Numbered from the stretch's first letter, positions 2,826 to 45,433 are shown. The stretch: 64,000 bases of DNA from Candidatus Moraniibacteriota bacterium (GCA_030648835.1 JAUSGT010000002.1:501458-565457); one strand, 5' to 3'. Numbers and translations: made by a program. Notes: a model not told the origin generated them from the sequence alone.

Positions 2826-4124
2826 ATGAAACGAATAGCCGCTATTTTTCAGGAAAATATTTTTGTCAGGAATAGTATCGTTCTTTTTTCAGGAACGATG
2901 GTGGTGAACGTGCTCAATTATATTTTTCATCTTGTCGTCGGAAGAATGGTAACCCCGAGCGCTTATGGAGAAATAGAGTCGCTTATCTCGCTTCTTGCCA
3001 TCATCTCGGTGCCGGCCTCGACGCTCACGCTCATTGCTACCAAATATGCGGCGGATATGAAAGCGGCGGGGAATTTTCGAGGGACATTGTCCTTGTCGAA
3101 ATATCTCACCGCCAAAGTTTTCTTGTATGGCACCCCTTTGTTTCTCATCGTTTTGCTTTTTACACCGCTGGTAAAAAGTTTTCTTAATATTGAGAACAGC
3201 CTGCCCATCCTGCTTCTCTGGTGCGTGATGTTTTTTTCTTTTCTCAGCGCGGCTACTTCCGGGATCCTTACCGGGTGGCAGAAGTTTTCCAAGATGAATC
3301 TCGTCGGCATACTTTCCATTGTTCTGAAGCTTTTGTCGGTGATACTTCTTCTCCGGCTTGGTTTCGCGGTGAGCGGTGTGGTCGGAAGCTATGTCCTTTC
3401 GACGCTCTTTATCTACCTGATGAACTTGTTCCTTCTCAAGAAATTTTTTCAAAGTAACTCATCCGGAGAAGAGGAGACAACCACTCTTTCATTTGCCACT
3501 CTCAAGAGTTATATTATCCCGGTCTTTTATGGGACTCTTTCCGTGGCAATTTTGGGGAATGCGGATATGATATTTGCCAAGCATCATCTCGACGCGGCCC
3601 TCTCCGGCGGATATGGAGCTCTCTCAATCGCGGCCAAGACGATTTTCTTTGTCACCGGGGTGTTTACAACAGTACTGTTTGCTATGTCAGCCGAAGAGAG
3701 TAACCACAGCAAAAAAGATTCGCGAACCTTCCGTTTAGCTGTCTGGCTAATGGTTCTCGTTGTATTTTTTTCCGTGACCTTTCTCTCTCTTTTCCCCGAA
3801 TTTGTCGTTTCGGTTCTTTTTGGCGAAAAATATCTCTCGGTAAGTCATTCTTTGGGTTGGTTCGCTCTGGCAGCCGGTATTTATTCGCTTGCCAACTTCT
3901 TTCTCCAATATTTGCTTTCTTTGCGCGAAACAAAAATTACCCTCTTCTTTTTGGCTTTATCCGGGCTTGAAATAGCCGTACTTTTCTTCTTTGGAGAGAC
4001 TTTTTATGCTATAATCGGCATAACGATTGCCACACAGATTTTGGCGGTACTTTTGGGACTCTGGTTCGTTTTGAAAAGAAAACACTATGGCGAAGAAGAT
4101 CTCGGTAGTTATACCGGCATATAA
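2826..4124 (+). CDS. Wzx-like oligosaccharide/polysaccharide flippase (MOP superfamily)
   Basis: About 12 predicted TM helices. N-terminal pattern 'NSIVLFSGTMVVNVLNYIFHLVVGRMVTPSAYGEIESLISL' is typical of polysaccharide biosynthesis flippases. ATG at 2826; the track ORF begins at an upstream TTG. Confidence 0.7.
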   Translation: MKRIAAIFQENIFVRNSIVLFSGTMVVNVLNYIFHLVVGRMVTPSAYGEIESLISLLAIISVPASTLTLIATKYAADMKAAGNFRGTLSLSKYLTAKVFLYGTPLFLIVLLFTPLVKSFLNIENSLPILLLWCVMFFSFLSAATSGILTGWQKFSKMNLVGILSIVLKLLSVILLLRLGFAVSGVVGSYVLSTLFIYLMNLFLLKKFFQSNSSGEEETTTLSFATLKSYIIPVFYGTLSVAILGNADMIFAKHHLDAALSGGYGALSIAAKTIFFVTGVFTTVLFAMSAEESNHSKKDSRTFRLAVWLMVLVVFFSVTFLSLFPEFVVSVLFGEKYLSVSHSLGWFALAAGIYSLANFFLQYLLSLRETKITLFFLALSGLEIAVLFFFGETFYAIIGITIATQILAVLLGLWFVLKRKHYGEEDLGSYTGI

Positions 4125-6851: not shown

Positions 6852-7562
6852 ATGGCTGCAACAAAGAAGTTGTCAGGAGTTCCCGGCTATAGGCCTGGTT
6901 GGAGGCTGACAGTAGACGGAATGTCTGTCGAGGGCGAATGGAAAATTATTTCGCCATTTGGATCGGTAGAAACCGCCGTTGTACTCCATGCCGATGGCAG
7001 TCCGAATTTTGATCGGCCAGCGTATCGAGAGGCGCCACACGTGAATTGTGTTGTGTGGGGCCGGGACAAGGATGGCGTGGCGAAGTTCGCTGTTATCCGT
7101 CAGCCACGTCCGCATGCCGATGACCCGGAACAGTCAGGAAATGATCATCAGTCGGTAGTGTTTGGGCAGACTCCTATGGGGTTTCTCGAAAAAATTATCG
7201 GCAAGGATCTTATTCCCAGGCTCGAGGATGTGGAACATGCCGCAGAGCGTGAAGCGTTGGAAGAGGCTGGTGCGCGGGTGGTGCTCAATGTCGAGCGTCC
7301 GCCATATCCGTGGCACAATCCGAACCCGACCTTCGTCGCCACGTGGGCGGATATCGTTTTCATCGAAGTCGATCTTGCCAAGATTGCTGAACTGAAGCCC
7401 GACCGTAGCGAGCCCATCTTTTCGGCAGAGTATGTCACGGTCGGAGAGCTTCGTCATCGGATTGCAGCAGGAAAGGATGAAGCGGGTGCGGTATATCGAG
7501 GCTGCACTTCAAACTCGGTATGGCTGATATTCTTTGCCCTCCATCCCGAACTTTGGCAGTAG
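6852..7562 (+). CDS. Nudix hydrolase
   Basis: Nudix-box core 'EHAAEREALEEAGA' (REUxEExGU). GC-rich relative to neighbours. Driven by its own consensus promoter. Confidence 0.7.
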   Translation: MAATKKLSGVPGYRPGWRLTVDGMSVEGEWKIISPFGSVETAVVLHADGSPNFDRPAYREAPHVNCVVWGRDKDGVAKFAVIRQPRPHADDPEQSGNDHQSVVFGQTPMGFLEKIIGKDLIPRLEDVEHAAEREALEEAGARVVLNVERPPYPWHNPNPTFVATWADIVFIEVDLAKIAELKPDRSEPIFSAEYVTVGELRHRIAAGKDEAGAVYRGCTSNSVWLIFFALHPELWQ

Positions 7563-38833: not shown

Positions 38834-39811
38834 TTACGCAACAACACTTGTTTGGCGGTATTTTTTCATGACACCTTTTCGGATGCGGCTGATGTCGGTG
38901 TGCATCATATAGGCCCAGTTCTGCATCCGTTGCCATTTGGTGCCCATCTTATTGACGAAGCGGGCGTAGGCCATCGGATCTTTCTCCGGGTCAGGTTTAT
39001 TCCAATCTCCGGTACCCGGAATGGGAGCGATGAATTCGAAGCCGTCTTCTCCTTCACCGAAAGCATCGAGCAGCTTGATGAGCGTGGGGACTTCTTCGAC
39101 CCCGTGTTCATCGTATTCATAATCCGCGGGTAAGATGTTGCCGGCTTTGTCACGCCGTTCATCGTCCCAGGCAGGGATGGTAGAGCGACGAGGATCATCG
39201 AGGCGCCGCTGCTCACACATCGTGTCGAAGCCACCGACCTGCATAAGAGAAATATTATGCCAGAGTGAGCACGTATTCATGATGTAGCCTTGCATCACGT
39301 ATGGCTTGATGGCGTCGAAGCCGAGGCCCGTGACGAGCGCGCCTTCGTCGAGCGCACCGAGCATACACGCGAAGGAATCGTGCGTAATGTTGGAGTCGGC
39401 CTCGCTTGAAAGGATGAGTGAATGACTGCAGCCTTTGACAAGCTGGACGGCGACTGCCCGATTCAGAATCTGACAGAAAATATCGCCGTGTTTCATTTCG
39501 TGAACCCAGACATTGGGTATATCACGTTCAATGATTTCGACGACCAGCGCCTCGGCGAGTTTCCCACAGTCATGGTCCTTGCGCGCTCTGTCAGACGCTA
39601 CCCAGATATCCACCCGTTTGATGGTATTCTTTTCCGGGTGGTGTCTCAAGGTTTGCAACATTTCGACGGTGCCAAGCAATTGCTTGACGCGCGCCGGGAC
39701 ACTTTCCTGTGTTCCGGCAAATCCGCGGAGGATGGCGCCAACAGTATTCTTTTCGAGGAAGTGTGCCGCGCCGCGTTCGTGGACTGCATTGCTGCGTATG
39801 TCTTGTATCAT
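38834..39811 (-). CDS. GC-rich hypothetical protein, GT-A-like fold candidate; paralog of the 60063 gene
   Basis: 'LSSEADSNITHDSFACMLGALDEGALVTGLGFD' aligns with 'CLDDNEHSFLSALDLLEKIEQGYLGAIGT' of the 60063 protein. AGGAGA Shine-Dalgarno. Own consensus promoter. Confidence 0.4.
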   Translation of the reverse strand: MIQDIRSNAVHERGAAHFLEKNTVGAILRGFAGTQESVPARVKQLLGTVEMLQTLRHHPEKNTIKRVDIWVASDRARKDHDCGKLAEALVVEIIERDIPNVWVHEMKHGDIFCQILNRAVAVQLVKGCSHSLILSSEADSNITHDSFACMLGALDEGALVTGLGFDAIKPYVMQGYIMNTCSLWHNISLMQVGGFDTMCEQRRLDDPRRSTIPAWDDERRDKAGNILPADYEYDEHGVEEVPTLIKLLDAFGEGEDGFEFIAPIPGTGDWNKPDPEKDPMAYARFVNKMGTKWQRMQNWAYMMHTDISRIRKGVMKKYRQTSVVA

Positions 39812-39942
39812 GAGTTTTCTCCTGAGGTTGGTAGACCTTTAGGCCCGGAGCTTTTTCAGGTATCCCAGAGGGTGAAATTGTCAAAGTACCCATACTACCG
39901 GGTACCGAGACCCAGTGTCGCGCATTTTTAGCTCGACCATAC

Positions 39943-39971
39943 ATTATACACCTTTTTAGTGATTTTGTCAA
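39943..39971 (-). promoter_or_regulatory. Consensus sigma-70-type promoter (TTGACA-17-TATAAT) on minus strand for the 38834..39811 gene
   Basis: Reverse complement reads TTGACA-aaatcactaaaaaggtg-TATAAT. Confidence 0.55.
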
Positions 39972-40025
39972 GAAGAAAATTAAGACGATTTATGTTAGAG
40001 TAAAGCAGAAATCATTTTATAGTGA

Positions 40026-40162
40026 CATGCCCGGTAGTGAAATTTCGACTAAGTTTTATTGGCCTAGCTATATAAGGGCTAGTGTTTGGTTTTTAAATAT
40101 AAATGTTTATTGAGTTTTTTTGACATAATGCAAATGTCGAAATTCTACTACCGGGTATGCGT
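40026..40162. repeat. Inverted-repeat cassette, family B, copy 1 (25-bp IRs about 110 bp apart; right IR contains the ATG of the downstream gene)
   Basis: CATGCCCGGTAGTGAAATTTCGA ... TCGAAATTCTACTACCGGGTATGCG. A degenerate extra box lies at 39871-39905. Confidence 0.6.
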
Positions 40163-41089
40163 AAAAACCTCCTGACCGCGGGGAAAATCCTCATAACGTT
40201 GGCACTGGTATTCTGGCTGATTGAGCGCGTCGATTGGCGGGGGGTATTGGCGCAGCTCTCCTCCATCACCTGGCCGCTCTTGTTTCTCTATGTCGTTTTT
40301 CAGCTGCTCGGTAATCTTATTTCCGCCAAGAAATGGCAGACTATCGGACGTTTTAAAGGGCTCGACTTCAGTTTGCGAGAAGCGTTCTTCGCTTATTTGG
40401 CAGGGACATTCATCAACAACTTCTTGCCATCCACCATTGGTGGCGATGCCTACCGTACTATTTGGTTGGTGAAGCGCTCCGGCGCGCGCGCGGCCGCTCT
40501 TTCCACGGTTATTTTTGATCGTTTCATCGGACTGTGGACGATCGCTCTTTTGGCACTCTTGTTCAGTCCGGTGTTGTTTCCTTTTATGAAAGAAAGTCTC
40601 CCGCTTTCTCTCTCCTACATCACCCTCGTCGTTTTTTTCGTGGTAGATCTCGTCATCACGTACGCGTACTGTCAAGCATGGTTTCATACTCTCGTGGCGC
40701 GCCTACCGTTTCACAAACTGCGCCGCTTTTTGGAAGAGATTATTTTTTACACCAAAAAACACATCTGGCTCAAAACCAGTCTCTGGTCAGCTCTCTTCAT
40801 CTTTGTCGGCTTGGTACTTTCCAACTTTACCTTGTTCCACGCTCTGGGAAGTGATATTGGGATTCTTCCCTTTGCGAGCGTCATGTTCCTTGTGGCCATC
40901 GTCGCGTCTATCCCGATCTCGATCAATAATATCGGTATCAAGGAGTGGGCTTATATCACCTTCTTTGGCCTGGTCGGGGTGAGCGTAGAAACGGCCGTGA
41001 CGGTGGCGCTCCTCTCCCGCTTCATCCAGATGCTTCTCTCTTTCATCGCTTTGCCGCAATACTTGAGGAAAGAAGATACCAAACAATAG
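40157..41089 (+). CDS. UPF0104 flippase-like membrane protein (lysyl-PG synthase TM-domain family)
   Basis: 'FINNFLPSTIGGDAYRTIWLVKRSG' family signature. 8 TM helices. Confidence 0.6.
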   Translation: MRKNLLTAGKILITLALVFWLIERVDWRGVLAQLSSITWPLLFLYVVFQLLGNLISAKKWQTIGRFKGLDFSLREAFFAYLAGTFINNFLPSTIGGDAYRTIWLVKRSGARAAALSTVIFDRFIGLWTIALLALLFSPVLFPFMKESLPLSLSYITLVVFFVVDLVITYAYCQAWFHTLVARLPFHKLRRFLEEIIFYTKKHIWLKTSLWSALFIFVGLVLSNFTLFHALGSDIGILPFASVMFLVAIVASIPISINNIGIKEWAYITFFGLVGVSVETAVTVALLSRFIQMLLSFIALPQYLRKEDTKQ

Positions 41090-41114
41090 ATATTTTTAAA
41101 AAGATTTTTCGTTT

Positions 41115-41209
41115 ATCCAGCACCTTCCAGAATACCCCGTGGTCTTGTCACGGGGGTAAATGGAAACATCAATCCATCCTGCGTGGTTCAATACCCTAAG
41201 GTGCTGGAT
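41115..41209. repeat. Palindromic repeat element, family A, copy 2
   Basis: ATCCAGCACCTTCCAGAATACCCCGTGGTCTTGTCACGGGGG...AAGGTGCTGGAT. The last 5 codons (NPAP*) of the convergent minus-strand gene are encoded inside it. Confidence 0.7.
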
Positions 41210-43034
41210 TTACTTTGACGACCTTGATAAAGTTTCCTTGACGGTTGCCGATAAAAAGTTGCCAAGCCGGATTGGGCGCGTTGTAATATCGGTACGCCGT
41301 GAGCCCCGATTTTTCTTCCCAGCGATCGTATTTCGGCATATAGCGGATCTGTCCGCGGCGCGTGAGGACGTAGTAATCCGGGTGGAGCGTTTCTTTATCG
41401 AATGAGTAGGCCGTGAGGCAACGCCCGACAAAAAATTCGCAGACGCCGTAGTAATCCGACCAGACGGTGAGCCGCTCTGCGTTTGGGAGACCATTCAGGT
41501 AGACCGCGGCTTCGTAGCCGCCATAGCCCCAGGCATCACTGATGAGGGCGTTTTGAGGGAGGAGGAAATTGGTGTAATTGAAGTAGAAAGGTTTGATGGT
41601 GATGAGACTGGCAAGCGAGCCCAAGAAAATGATGGAGGTTATGAAAAACGGCGTCCATCGTGGGGTGAACTTTTCACAGATAAACCAGAAACCAAGGGCT
41701 GCCAAAAAAGCGAAAAGAGGATAGAGGAAAACGCTGTAGCGCGGCGTCGAGAGGACATTGGAAAAAAGAAGGAGAAGTGTGTACGCGAGAGCGAAAAGGA
41801 GTAAACCGGAAGAGAAAAACGAATAGTTGTTTTTCTTTTTTACTATAAGCGTGGTGAGGAGAGCCGTCAGTCCCAAGAGTACGAGTGGCGTGAGTGAAAA
41901 GATTATCGGGTTCCATTCCAGAAGCAAGGCTTCCAAAAAGCGGGGAGTGTCCGTATAGTAGCGGGCGTTGGAAAGGTCTTTGATGTCGAAAGGGATGAGC
42001 GCGAAGATTCTCCACCCGGCAAAAAAGTTTCGGGCGATGATGAGGAAGAAAAAAATACCCAAAAACAGAAATGGTAGCGCGCGCGAGAGAGGAACAAGAA
42101 ATTTCCGGTAAAGGGTACGGACAAAGAAGAGGAACTTGTTTTTGAAAATGAAGGTGTCGAGGGCGAGCACGCCAAGGAGGAGTCCTCCACTTGAAAAGAA
42201 GATCAGTTTATGGGGAAGGGCAAGGAAGAAGGCATCTCGGGCGCTCGGACTGATGAGAAGAGCGGGAAGAAAAAGGCACAGAAGAATGAGCGCGCCAAAA
42301 ACAATTATGGTCCATTGGATGAGAGATTTCTTCAAAGCGCTCCGCAGAGTTTCATCGGTCGTCTCATCGGCACGCAAGAAGCGGAAAAGAATAAGCGCCA
42401 AGAAGAAAGGAAAGAGAATAAGTGCCGTGTATTTGGAAAGGAGTGCCAAGCCGGTACAGACGACAGTGAGCCACAGGAATTTCTTTTCTTCGGATTTTAA
42501 GAGGGCGAAAAAAGAAAATATCGCCACCATACCGAAGGACCAGAGGAGACTGTCGGGATTCACGATTTGCGAGATGCCCAGCAGAATCGGTGAAAGGGCC
42601 GAAAGGAGAGTAGTCCAGAGAGCGATCCAAGGATTCGTCAGTTTGACAATGAGAAAAAAGAGAAGGAAGAGAAGGCATCCGTTCAAAATGAGAAGAGGGA
42701 GACGAAAGTCTCTGTATATCGCCTCTACCCGATTCGTTTGGCAGGTGAGTATTTTGGCGTTGCTTTCGACGCATAGTGTCTTGGAATCGGGGTCGAGAAA
42801 GTAGCCTATGCCGGAAACCAAAGCCAGACTCACGCCGGGCTTGTCGTTGATAAAGGTTTTCTTCCATTTGCTGTTGGCTACGGCATCCCAGTATTGCGGG
42901 ACGCGTTCATAGACCCAGTAGTGCTCGTCCGCGGTGATGAACTTTCCCAGGTGTTGGAGGCCAAAGAAAAAATACGCGGAGAAAACAAGCGCCAATGAGA
43001 TATGGAAAAAATATCTGTTGAGAAAACCAAGCAT
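41196..43034 (-). CDS. GT-C polytopic glycosyltransferase, ArnT/PMT (GT39/83)-like
   Basis: 'FITADEHYWVYE' DE-motif in first extracytoplasmic loop, 'DKPG', about 13 TM helices, C-terminal soluble domain. Confidence 0.6.
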   Translation of the reverse strand: MLGFLNRYFFHISLALVFSAYFFFGLQHLGKFITADEHYWVYERVPQYWDAVANSKWKKTFINDKPGVSLALVSGIGYFLDPDSKTLCVESNAKILTCQTNRVEAIYRDFRLPLLILNGCLLFLLFFLIVKLTNPWIALWTTLLSALSPILLGISQIVNPDSLLWSFGMVAIFSFFALLKSEEKKFLWLTVVCTGLALLSKYTALILFPFFLALILFRFLRADETTDETLRSALKKSLIQWTIIVFGALILLCLFLPALLISPSARDAFFLALPHKLIFFSSGGLLLGVLALDTFIFKNKFLFFVRTLYRKFLVPLSRALPFLFLGIFFFLIIARNFFAGWRIFALIPFDIKDLSNARYYTDTPRFLEALLLEWNPIIFSLTPLVLLGLTALLTTLIVKKKNNYSFFSSGLLLFALAYTLLLLFSNVLSTPRYSVFLYPLFAFLAALGFWFICEKFTPRWTPFFITSIIFLGSLASLITIKPFYFNYTNFLLPQNALISDAWGYGGYEAAVYLNGLPNAERLTVWSDYYGVCEFFVGRCLTAYSFDKETLHPDYYVLTRRGQIRYMPKYDRWEEKSGLTAYRYYNAPNPAWQLFIGNRQGNFIKVVKVNPAP

Positions 43035-43163
43035 ACCCAGTAGTGAAACTTCGATAGTTTTTTAGGAAAACTATCTCTGTGTATCAAATGTTATTTTTTA
43101 TCAATGCTTCTTATGAAAGATTCCACCATAATACTTAATCGAAGTTCTACTACTGGGCATAGC
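43030..43163. repeat. Inverted-repeat cassette, family B, copy 2
   Basis: AGCATACCCAGTAGTGAAACTTCGA ... TCGAAGTTCTACTACTGGGCATAGC. Left IR overlaps the ATG (on minus) of the 41196..43034 gene. Right IR abuts the stop of the 43163..45433 gene. Confidence 0.6.
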
Positions 43164-45433
43164 TATTGTTCAAAACGGAACACTTTGACGAAGTGCGACG
43201 GACGATTATTGATGAGGATGTGGAAGAGCGGATTGGTTTTCGTGTAGTACTGATCAAAACGGATGATTCCGGGTTTATTATTGGCGATATCTCCGCCCAT
43301 CATCTTGGTTGTTCGACTCTGGCGGCCGGCAGAAACGACGATATAGTCGAGCCCGTTTTCCCGCATCATCGCATAGTTCCGACTGCTTGAGCATCGGCCG
43401 ACGAAGAATTTGCATACTCCATCTTTGTCCGTCCAAATGAGCATATTTTTGGCCTCAGGCAAGGAGTTCAGATACTGGGCGGCCTCATAGCTCCCCGCGC
43501 CCATATCTTTCACGTCAACGCTGTATTTGGCCGGCAGGAGCGCTGAGGCATAGCTCAGGGGAAAGGGTGTGAGAAAAAGCGTCAGCCCTCCCAAGAGGAT
43601 AACGAGAGAAGTCACGAAGACCGGTGTCGGCATTTCTTTGAGGGAGAATTTTTTGTGGATGGCAGTCAGACAATGTTCGAGAGTAATCCCGGCGATAATG
43701 GCGGCCAGGGGGAAGATGATAATCTGGTAACGGACAATCGCTCCCACGTGATTGACGGTTGTTCCGAGATAGTAGAGGAGAGTGAAGACGATGAGGTAGA
43801 AAGAAGTGCGCAAGGCGACCGATTCCGCAAAATGTTTTTTGAGAAAGAAAAAGGGCGCGATAATAAGAAAGAGGAAAACGAGCGGAGTGATACCGAAAAG
43901 GAGCGGGTAGAAATTCGTGAGGTAGGCGCCGATGAAATCGCTTTTGTCGGCAATCGTCTTGGGCGAGGCGAGGAGTTCCATAAAGTGATAGGGTGTCATA
44001 CCGAGCCACGTATCGAGAAGAGTGAAGGAAACAGCCGTAAAAAATATTCCACCGATGACCCAGGCGAGAGTGTGTTTTAGTTTTTGGAACAGGCTCAAAA
44101 TGACGCCGGTGAAACGGGATGCGTTCAGCCATTGATCGAGAAGAATGAGAAGCGTGACCACCAGAAAGAGAGGAGCCACTTTTTCAAAGGCTTGGCTTCC
44201 GAGGGTGGAGGTGAAGAGTTTCATTGGTTTGATCCACACGGCTGGAAAGAGAATGTAAAAAGTGGTGAGCGCCGCAAAGGTGAGGAGGGCAAGATGCTCA
44301 AGCGATTTTTTCAGGTAGCGAGTGAAAGGAATGAGCGCCTGTTTGGGATGGTAGAGATATTCGAGGAAAATGAGACCGAGGAAAAAAACAAAAAGAATAT
44401 TGGCGACATACTTGGTGAGGAGCGCCAAACCGAGAAAAATTCCGGAGAAGATGAGATAGCGAAACGAGCCACGTTTCTGAAATACAAGGTACGAGAGGAG
44501 CGAAAGCGGAGCAAAGACCCAAAGCAGCGAATCAGGGTTGATGATTTTGGTTATACCGATCAAGACCGGGGAAAGCGCGATAAAAGCGAAGCCGAACACA
44601 GCGTGTCTTCTCCCGAGCAGGCGTTCCAGAAAAAAGTAGAAAAGCGGCAGGAAGAGCGTGACAAAGAGAAGCTGTGGGAGACGGAAAGCGAAGTAATAGC
44701 TTTTTACATCGTTTTTGAGGTTGAGAACCTCACCTTGGTAGTGCGTGGTACGGTACTCTTTGGTCGATTTGAAAAATGTGCCGGGCCCGGTTACCAGAGC
44801 CACGGTAATACCCGGTTTATCGCTGATACCGGTGCCTTTCCAATCGCGCTCCCCGATATTTTTCCAGTATTTGGCGATGCGACCATCGATCCAGAGTGGT
44901 TCATCGACTGCGGCATACTCTGTGAGGCGGGAGAGTCCGAAAACAAAAAACATTCCTGTTACGATGAGGATGAGGAGAAGCGTCGGCAACCCTTGGGCGA
45001 TGAACCAATTCTTGCAGGTCAGCGCTTCACTGTCGATTCTGTTTTCAGCGGCGCGTTCTTTGCCAATGAACAGGGCGGAAACGAGTACACCGCTCGCGAT
45101 AACGTACATCCCAAGCGCTATCCAGAAAATATAGTGAAAATGACGAGAGGCGCTGAGGCCATAGGCCAAAATGAGTATGCCCGGAAGCCAGATGAGGAGC
45201 AGCCGGGAAAGCCACTTTTTCCAATCGAATTGCGAAGAAAAATAGGCAACCGCGCCTAAAGAAAGTACGCCGGCAATGGCGAAACCGAGATAAAATGGAT
45301 TGTTGCTCGAAGCGAGACGAAAGAGCGCGAGAGAATTTACTTGAAGAGAAACAAAGAGAAGTGTAAGCAATGCGTTGCAGACTGTCAAAATCCCGTAGAC
45401 ACGTTTTTCTTGGTTATCGAAAAAAGCCAACAT
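43163..45433 (-). CDS. GT-C polytopic glycosyltransferase, ArnT/PMT-like (tandem paralog)
   Basis: 'AAVDEPLWIDG' DE-motif, 'DKPGITVALVTG'. More than 14 TM helices. Confidence 0.6.
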   Translation of the reverse strand: MLAFFDNQEKRVYGILTVCNALLTLLFVSLQVNSLALFRLASSNNPFYLGFAIAGVLSLGAVAYFSSQFDWKKWLSRLLLIWLPGILILAYGLSASRHFHYIFWIALGMYVIASGVLVSALFIGKERAAENRIDSEALTCKNWFIAQGLPTLLLILIVTGMFFVFGLSRLTEYAAVDEPLWIDGRIAKYWKNIGERDWKGTGISDKPGITVALVTGPGTFFKSTKEYRTTHYQGEVLNLKNDVKSYYFAFRLPQLLFVTLFLPLFYFFLERLLGRRHAVFGFAFIALSPVLIGITKIINPDSLLWVFAPLSLLSYLVFQKRGSFRYLIFSGIFLGLALLTKYVANILFVFFLGLIFLEYLYHPKQALIPFTRYLKKSLEHLALLTFAALTTFYILFPAVWIKPMKLFTSTLGSQAFEKVAPLFLVVTLLILLDQWLNASRFTGVILSLFQKLKHTLAWVIGGIFFTAVSFTLLDTWLGMTPYHFMELLASPKTIADKSDFIGAYLTNFYPLLFGITPLVFLFLIIAPFFFLKKHFAESVALRTSFYLIVFTLLYYLGTTVNHVGAIVRYQIIIFPLAAIIAGITLEHCLTAIHKKFSLKEMPTPVFVTSLVILLGGLTLFLTPFPLSYASALLPAKYSVDVKDMGAGSYEAAQYLNSLPEAKNMLIWTDKDGVCKFFVGRCSSSRNYAMMRENGLDYIVVSAGRQSRTTKMMGGDIANNKPGIIRFDQYYTKTNPLFHILINNRPSHFVKVFRFEQ

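Follow-up and report, generated by a model that had tools for sequence, protein, structure and literature searches.

Start-codon cassettes in a Moraniibacteriota genome as probable non-autonomous copies of a Patescibacteria repeat family that shares its ends with a GIY-YIG nuclease unit

The DNA analysed here, a stretch of 64,000 nucleotides (nt) from a Candidatus Moraniibacteriota bacterium (GCA_030648835.1 JAUSGT010000002.1:501458-565457; hereafter the window), carries between positions 39865 and 43162 two cassettes bounded by inverted copies of a 22-nt box, and what looks like the remnant of a third one. In each cassette, one copy of the box runs into the start codon of a gene predicted to act on the cell envelope, and a first-pass annotation, made from the sequence alone, had therefore proposed that the boxes are a signal dedicated to a glycosylation regulon. 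We conclude instead that the two cassettes and the remnant are probably non-autonomous copies, lacking an open reading frame (ORF), of a repeat family of the Patescibacteria that shares its ends with a unit coding for a small GIY-YIG nuclease.

Boxes and cassettes in the window

The box, TCGAARTTYYACTACYGGGYAT, is present four times without a mismatch, at 40027-40048 (minus strand), 40137-40158 (plus), 43033-43054 (minus) and 43139-43160 (plus). There was no further match with up to 3 mismatches in the 64 kb, and none in 100 dinucleotide shuffles. The four boxes make up two inverted pairs, as first annotated, with their TCGA ends pointing inward. Read in the orientation of the gene, both cassettes have the layout (T/C)ATG-CCCRGTAGT..TTCGA-(83-87 nt, 25-26% GC)-TCGAA..ACTACYGGG-TATG; in each, the arm next to the gene (the proximal arm) does supply the downstream ATG, at 40157 on the plus strand and at 43034 on the minus strand. 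The arms of cassette 1 are 88% complementary over 24 nt, and those of cassette 2 have a weaker extension, 71% complementary over 42 nt. The interiors, of 87 nt (26% GC) and 83 nt (25% GC), are AT-rich and unrelated, in agreement with the annotation: aligned with each other in either orientation, they did not score significantly above shuffled controls. The components are the following.

Cassette 1, distal arm: 40026..40049, plus strand, CATG-CCCGGTAGTGAAATTTCGA-C, with its ATG at 40027-40029 and the exact box on the minus strand; inverted-repeat partner at 40136-40159.
Cassette 1, interior: 40050..40135, plus strand, AT-rich, 26% GC.
Terminator-like hairpin followed by a T-run: 40064-40082, inside the interior of cassette 1.
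TGACATAAT, an extended -10-like sequence, read as a promoter by eye only: interior of cassette 1, 7 nt before the proximal arm.
Cassette 1, proximal arm: 40136..40159, plus strand, G-TCGAAATTCTACTACCGGG-TATG, the last 3 bases being the start codon of the LPG_synthase_TM gene.
Cassette 2, distal arm: 43139..43162, minus strand, C-TATG-CCCAGTAGTAGAACTTCGA, beginning 1 nt past the TAG (43163-43165) of the gene for a GT-C protein of 756 amino acids (aa).
Cassette 2, interior: 43055..43138, minus strand, AT-rich, 25% GC.
Cassette 2, proximal arm: 43032..43054, minus strand, TCGAAGTTTCACTACTGGG-TATG, the ATG at 43034..43032 starting the 612-aa GT-C gene.
Decayed third cassette: 39865..39905, plus strand, a degenerate distal-type arm followed directly by a degenerate proximal-type arm (…ATACTACCGGGTAcc).

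The degenerate box reported upstream of cassette 1 was recovered in this last feature. In alignments, the segment at ~39865-39905 corresponds to a distal-type arm joined to one of the proximal type (ATACTACCGGGTA), with local alignment scores of 18-25 against the arms of cassettes 1 and 2, and the sequence ACTACCGGGTAC at 39894 is 1 mismatch away from the outer half-motif. Judged from its sequence, it looks like a cassette that has collapsed and decayed. The other assemblies found for the window genes all came from the same Logan sample and were identical in sequence.

The box family precedes unrelated genes in many Patescibacteria

The distribution of the box was determined in one scan of species-representative genomes. 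Among the matches listed, the exact 22-mer occurs at more than 109 loci, with at least 13 loci in some single genomes. These loci are titled as metagenome-assembled genomes (MAGs) of the Patescibacteria group, or as 'uncultured' MAGs of other taxa, save one (L090, Candidatus Humimicrobiaceae); the groups named are Moranbacteria, Parcubacteria, Buchananbacteria, Uhrbacteria, Portnoybacteria, Sungiibacteriota and Gottesmanbacteria. The window arms are members of this family. When boxes with up to 4 mismatches were counted in the retrieved loci, 225 boxes gave 97 (-,+) pairs, and in 77 of them (~80%) exactly one arm, of the form GGGTATG, provides the start of an ORF of 50 aa or more, the partner arm being GGGCAT-A. 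No match to the box was found in IMG/VR, and spread by viruses was accordingly dropped as a candidate.

Most of the genes that follow the cassettes serve essential housekeeping functions; among their products are class I tRNA synthetases, TsaD, penicillin-binding proteins, ribosomal protein L10, T2SSE/F, GT4, SSB and MurA-type enzymes, and pilus ATPases are also preceded by a box. Since the 84 downstream proteins match as many as 112 Pfam families, the dedicated glycosylation regulon is refuted. The box is moreover missing at genes orthologous to the one that follows cassette 1: it was absent upstream of the 22 closest LPG_synthase orthologues (54-76% identity), which come directly after a GT4 gene, and no box with up to 3 mismatches was found in 559 kb of 80 related metagenome loci. 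At the site of cassette 2, an orthologous cassette in a decayed state is found in the closest relative (L119, 75-79% identity), and more distant relatives have tight GT-C/GT-C junctions (ATGA overlap or CTATG). These junctions suggest that TATG was duplicated when cassette 2 was acquired.

Measured from start to start, the arms of most pairs are 100-133 nt apart, and smaller groups have spacings of 58-72, 175-184 and 289 nt. This bears on the idea, also put forward in the first-pass annotation, that the arms are paired operators; a DNA-binding regulator would then loop the DNA between them. Each arm is indeed a conserved duplex of 22 bp, and the window arms lie ~106-110 bp apart. However, the spacing runs continuously from 58 to 289 nt without helical phasing, the downstream genes are diverse, the distribution among relatives is patchy, and a position that varies freely stays complementary between the two arms (see below); paired operators are for these reasons very improbable. 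The 289-nt spacing common to L009 and L060 proved to be a coincidence, L060 containing a run of N.

Two side observations concern the geometry of the family. A variant with arms ~175-184 nt apart and GC-rich interiors that are partly common between copies is found in the GC-rich genomes ERP125453_co1_301 and _304 (L004, L007, L010, L052, L056, L075, L086, L092, L093 and L099); several of these copies lie at contig ends, which indicates that the copies break assemblies. In L058, a lone distal-type arm without partner, at 7523 (minus strand), stands 3 nt upstream of the start codon of ribosomal protein L10, a gene that in three other genomes has a complete cassette.

Units with the same ends code for a GIY-YIG nuclease

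Two cassettes of the box family were found to hold a small GIY-YIG ORF. A homologue search with this ORF, including the peptide encoded by the arm, yielded hundreds of GIY-YIG proteins of ~95-100 aa. In 53 of the best 120, the N-terminus is of the MPGSE[TN]S type, which is the distal arm read in frame; 6 of these 53 have no other methionine before the catalytic core, and some read-through C-termini encode the proximal arm. At the DNA level, the full-length unit of ~310 bp reads TATG-arm-8 nt-ATG...ORF...stop-0..4 nt-arm-TATG-host gene in four loci (L009, L192, L196, L198), where the host genes are those of ProRS, PrgI, VanW and a 539-aa protein. The ORFs of these four units are 95-100 aa long from the arm ATG and 85-90 aa from the internal methionine, and their variant arms are compensated in the same way as those of the short cassettes (see below). 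The product is a bare single domain, matched by the Pfam GIY-YIG model over residues 11-81 (E=7.7e-18); by sequence, its closest relatives of solved structure are UPF0213 proteins (1zg2, E=7e-5). In these bacteria, rRNA-gene insertions other than group I and group II introns have also been reported to contain GIY-YIG ORFs (PMC11270868), and they might belong to the same element family.

The ProRS gene provides a filled site and empty ones. The three empty sites (L201-L203, orthologues with 81-85% identity) read TTGGCA-17-TAAAAT-N7-ATG-ProRS, which is a promoter of the leaderless type. The filled site (L192) reads TTGGCA-17-TAAAAT-acgcat-ATG(element)TATG-ProRS. There is thus one (T)ATG in the former and two in the latter, i.e. 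a target duplication. It follows from this comparison that the full-length unit sits exactly on the start codon and that its reading frame inherits the promoter and the start codon of the host gene.

Cassettes behave as discrete copied units

Where cassettes precede different genes of one genome, their identity runs exactly from ATG to ATG and the flanks are unrelated. The cassettes of L048 and L080 differ by one base, located in the distal arm, and their interiors agree at 86 of 86 positions; those of L015, L022 and L025 are 94-96% identical. Such related interiors within one genome were seen in these other genomes, the interiors of the two window copies being unrelated. Tandem arrays with a common TATG also exist (L045, with a period of 129, and L060). 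Cassettes also occupy the same place at orthologous genes of different genomes; there the arms are kept and the interiors have diverged beyond alignment.

The arms are probably read as a paired structure

Arm anatomy was compared over 80 distinct cassettes. The arms pair across ~24 positions and are never perfect complements, for TTTCAC faces TTCTAC (a swapped dinucleotide) and GGGCAT faces GGGTAT; of the annotation's statement that one arm is the reverse complement of the other, the inverted pairing is correct and the perfect match is not. Where the arms vary, they do so together: one position is G-C in 55 cassettes, A-T in 16 and G-T in 6, another is C-G in 41 and T-A in 36, and the first interior base is C-G in 40, A-T in 20 and T-A in 19, so that it makes a Watson-Crick pair in 79/80. 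That a freely variable position stays complementary argues for a read-out of base pairing, or structure, and not of the duplex. Two positions always form a tandem purine-pyrimidine mismatch, G.T then A.C in 49 cassettes and A.C then G.T in 27, and such a fixed mismatch fits with structure read-out. The outermost four bases are a direct TATG...TATG repeat and can pair only as wobbles, on the sense strand only. A single arm is not self-complementary; the halves of the stem are 36-290 nt apart, and only abutting cassettes (L045, L060) create a contiguous palindrome.

The first-pass annotation had proposed that the arms, if transcribed, would pair and bury the start codon, and folding predictions are in keeping with this. 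The predicted RNA stem is more stable on the sense strand than on the antisense strand, at -46.3 versus -36.8 kcal/mol for cassette 1 and -42.2 versus -38.0 kcal/mol for cassette 2, with sense-strand z-scores of -6.0 and -5.7; the values predicted for DNA, sense versus antisense, are -20.3 versus -18.9 and -20.6 versus -17.8. The boxes could be a host cis-regulatory RNA, i.e. a leader stem hiding the AUG, which a factor or the ribosome traffic would open or cleave, and which would act as a translational switch or as a processing site. Besides the strength and the polarity of the stem, three features speak for such a leader: two wobble pairs (T.G and G.T) are conserved on the sense strand, strong promoters lie just upstream of the distal arm in ~12-15/77 cassettes, and at orthologous genes the arms are kept when the interiors diverge. 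Nevertheless, the downstream genes show no class specificity, close relatives lack the cassette or, in one case, have a decayed copy, exact ATG-to-ATG copies are found before unrelated genes, tandem arrays occur, and a nuclease gene is flanked by the same arms. Outside the fixed wobbles, the mismatches show no sense bias (~20 G.U versus 16 A.C). No Rfam family was matched: the window region gave only sub-threshold hits to microRNA-like hairpins, and seven related loci gave tRNA and tmRNA only. Finally, the ORF that starts at the distal ATG of short cassettes bears no sign of selection. A regulatory leader is therefore an improbable origin for the boxes; hiding of the downstream AUG in transcripts is probably a by-product of the stem, possibly exploited later, and not the reason why the boxes exist.

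One genome showed a local peculiarity. In H41-bin156_1 (L008, L009, L040, L041, L072, L074), a GC hairpin capped by a stable tetraloop comes after the distal arm, and after this hairpin comes CYGGGCA, a sequence able to pair with AUGCCCRG in that arm; the two covary (CCCAG/CTGGG, CCCGG/CCGGG). It is possible that this is an alternative local fold competing with the long-range stem.

The arms fall into two classes, TC and CT being swapped, and both dinucleotides swap together; all nuclease-bearing units observed are of one class. In 5 of 9 groups of orthologous cassettes the class flips, and the interior is not inverted. Such flips, and inverted repeats around a short AT-rich segment upstream of surface-glycosylation genes, are what an invertible promoter would display, that is, a phase-variation switch in which a site-specific recombinase turns the interior around between the arms. 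Two marks of inversion were looked for and neither was found: no pair of cassettes has similar interiors in opposite orientation, and the polarity of the interior is tied to the gene and not to the arm class (CYCRG on the distal side and AAATTG on the proximal side in both classes). The interiors are not enriched in sigma-70-like promoters (position weight matrix, sense versus antisense versus shuffled), there is no recombinase among the ten genes neighbouring the cassettes, and the downstream genes are, as said, mostly of the housekeeping type. We regard an invertible promoter as most unlikely.

Promoters and gene starts around the cassettes

The lack of promoter enrichment also settles one part of another suggestion of the annotation, namely that the boxes are terminal repeats of a MITE (miniature inverted-repeat transposable element) that captured promoters. 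The MITE part comes closest to the evidence, and the captured promoters do not stand. In related loci, the strongest promoters cluster just upstream of the distal arms, which makes it probable that both arms are co-transcribed. Other loci repeatedly have -10 boxes at a distance of 6-11 nt upstream of the distal ATG, and it seems that Moranbacteria-type genomes often use leaderless starts with a -10 box 6-11 nt before the ATG. Examples of leaderless-type starts are found in L201-L203 at 1390-1503, in L192 at 2950-3004 and in many other loci.

The absence of a Shine-Dalgarno (SD) sequence, which the annotation had singled out, is no special feature: by a crude measure, only ~13% of the long ORFs in related loci have a core SD. 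Nor is the SD enriched upstream of the distal ATG, where it was found in 9/81 cases against 13% for other ORFs. Translational coupling within the short cassettes was considered and rejected, the ORF opened by the distal ATG having a median of 20 codons, the same as another frame, and its stops not lying near the proximal ATG.

A proposed mechanism and the points that weigh against it

The mechanism that we favour can be described as follows. The ~23-nt inverted ends of the cassettes are the same as those flanking the ~310-bp unit that codes for the stand-alone 85-aa GIY-YIG nuclease, and a (T)ATG stands at either border. In full-length units the frame of the nuclease starts at the border ATG, thereby taking over the promoter and the start codon of the host gene, and the host gene would restart at the second ATG, 20-24 nt past the nuclease stop; re-initiation over this distance is plausible, for full-length units only. 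Within a single strand the two arms would pair into a stem of ~24 bp containing the conserved tandem G.T/A.C mismatch. As Ssn nucleases do with their hairpin repeats, the cognate nuclease would by analogy recognise this arm hairpin and cut it, presumably in single-stranded DNA, and the cut would allow copying or movement to other TATG sites. The family would accordingly be a variant of the Ssn/NTS-type GIY-YIG system, or a MITE-like element, with a new architecture.

Several observations weigh against this mechanism and against the link with the nuclease on which it is built. There is no GIY-YIG gene in the 64-kb window. The interiors of the short cassettes contain no remnant of the nuclease ORF (hmmsearch E-values all >1), and none of 79 has an ATG at the position where the ORF would start; with no signal in either the protein-profile search or the position-specific ATG count, the idea that short cassettes are deletion derivatives of the nuclease ORF was given up. 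Other GIY-YIG genes in the loci (L023, L069, L110, L057) are without arms, and to our knowledge no GIY-YIG enzyme acts as a DNA transposase. The identical interiors within one genome could be due to gene conversion between existing cassettes rather than to transposition, and the conservation of the arms at orthologous sites, where the interiors have fully diverged, also fits with host-level selection on the arms.

A more extensive proposal, which we put forward tentatively and consider rather doubtful as a whole, is that of an undescribed selfish element of ~310 bp. Its nuclease would read its own split hairpin in single-stranded DNA and insert at TATG start codons, often those of leaderless essential genes; the element would borrow the start of the host gene and return translation to it 20-24 nt past its own stop, and ORF-less miniatures would be mobilised in trans, their stems maybe being co-opted. 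No description of the element was found in the literature on Patescibacteria inverted repeats, MITEs, Shine-Dalgarno sequences and leaderless genes.

A conserved 22-mer lies on the start codons of many essential genes of the Patescibacteria, and explaining it removes a false regulon; the annotation of gene starts, leaders and small ORFs in this group should change. If the link with the nuclease is true, the full-length unit is perhaps the smallest known self-contained selfish DNA unit, parasitising the start codon of its host.

Genes and other features around the cassettes

The genes next to the cassettes are the following.

325-aa ORF: 38834-39811, minus strand, without match in Pfam or NCBIfam.
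LPG_synthase_TM gene, 310 aa: 40157-41089, plus strand, ATG at 40157-40159.
GT-C/PMT gene, 612 aa: 41196-43034, minus strand, start codon (CAT on the plus strand) at 43032-43034.
GT-C gene, 756 aa: 43163-45433, minus strand.

Relative to the 22 orthologous loci in which the LPG_synthase gene directly follows the GT4 gene, the segment 38756-40156 is a 1.4-kb insertion. It contains the 325-aa minus-strand ORF and the AGGAG ribosome site of that ORF, the remnant and cassette 1. A sigma-70 promoter perfectly matching the consensus (TTGACA-17-TATAAT, 12/12) is located at 39943-39971 on the minus strand and is directed at the 325-aa ORF; the decayed remnant lies, in antisense, within the leader of ~120 nt expected from it.

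Between the convergent LPG_synthase and GT-C genes (41090-41195), a 12-bp inverted repeat (ATCCAGCACCTT...AAGGTGCTGGAT) flanks a GC hairpin (CCCCGTG...CACGGGG), and it is precisely here, at 41118-41144, that the two Logan contigs of the sample break and overlap. The repeat may act as a bidirectional terminator or represent a further small element. Both the window and L119 have the 612-aa GT-C gene, which is missing in L118, L120, L121 and L127; in the relatives without it, the 756-aa-type gene is directly convergent to LPG_synthase. The gene next to cassette 2 looks like a lineage-specific gain or duplication.

Comparison with known systems

The closest parallel is the Ssn system, which comprises the Ssn-related motifs NTS/dRS3 of Neisseria (Chenal et al., Nat Commun 2025; PMC11893778). 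The Ssn nucleases are single-domain GIY-YIG enzymes of ~94 aa. Hairpin repeats that are scattered over the genome stand on either side of their genes; cleavage takes place near the hairpin, is restricted to single-stranded DNA, and still occurs when the two hairpin halves are given as separate oligonucleotides (PMC11893778). The family described here resembles them in several ways: a single-domain GIY-YIG protein of about 90-100 aa is encoded between the arms, the repeat stands on both sides of the nuclease gene (at four DNA loci, and in the 53/120 homologues that read the 5' arm), many further copies of this repeat, mostly intergenic, lie beside genes throughout the genome (two cassettes and one remnant in the window), and the repeat depends on base pairing. 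It differs in others. Instead of forming one hairpin of 20-50 nt, the halves enclose the nuclease ORF or an AT-rich filler and are 36-290 nt apart; the element is placed exactly on start codons; the frame of the nuclease begins within the distal arm; there is no sequence relationship between the arms and NTS; and the hosts are Patescibacteria, which the main text of PMC11893778 does not mention. The same paper draws for Ssn an analogy with REP repeats and RAYT enzymes (PMC11893778), which we consider below. Should the nuclease link hold, the Ssn-type enzymes would extend to a split-hairpin architecture and to a new group at the phylum level, and the enzyme-site pairs would be candidate tools for cutting single-stranded DNA. 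Patescibacteria take up DNA as single strands, and a single-strand nuclease specific for hairpins could therefore influence how they exchange genes, as shown for Neisseria.

Correia (CREE/NEMIS) and ERIC-type elements resemble the cassettes in several respects: they are intergenic units of 100-160 bp with terminal inverted repeats of ~25 bp, they duplicate a short target, their end variants occur in differing combinations, and, transcribed along with neighbouring genes, they form long hairpins that can affect the fate of the mRNA. Unlike the cassettes, Correia and ERIC-type elements have conserved interiors, and their target is TA and not (T)ATG at a start codon; the cassettes have interiors free to vary and arms with a fixed tandem mismatch. 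We know of no nuclease-coding, full-length partner with the same ends for Correia or ERIC-type elements.

The REP/BIME elements and their RAYT (TnpA-REP) enzymes have in common with the cassettes a single small nuclease-type gene flanked by short repeats scattered through the genome, a presumed recognition of hairpins in single strands, and repeats that alternate in orientation within arrays. But RAYTs are HUH/Y1 enzymes and not GIY-YIG ones, and each REP is a self-contained palindrome, found mostly at gene ends and not on start codons.

Free-standing GIY-YIG homing genes, such as the seg genes of phage T4, are like the cassettes small and selfish, placed between host genes and polymorphic for presence or absence among relatives. 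Homing, however, copies the gene into the same locus of a naive genome, by means of enzymes that carry DNA-binding domains, and it makes neither inverted ends, nor spread to many loci, nor ORF-less miniatures, all of which distinguish the family described here.

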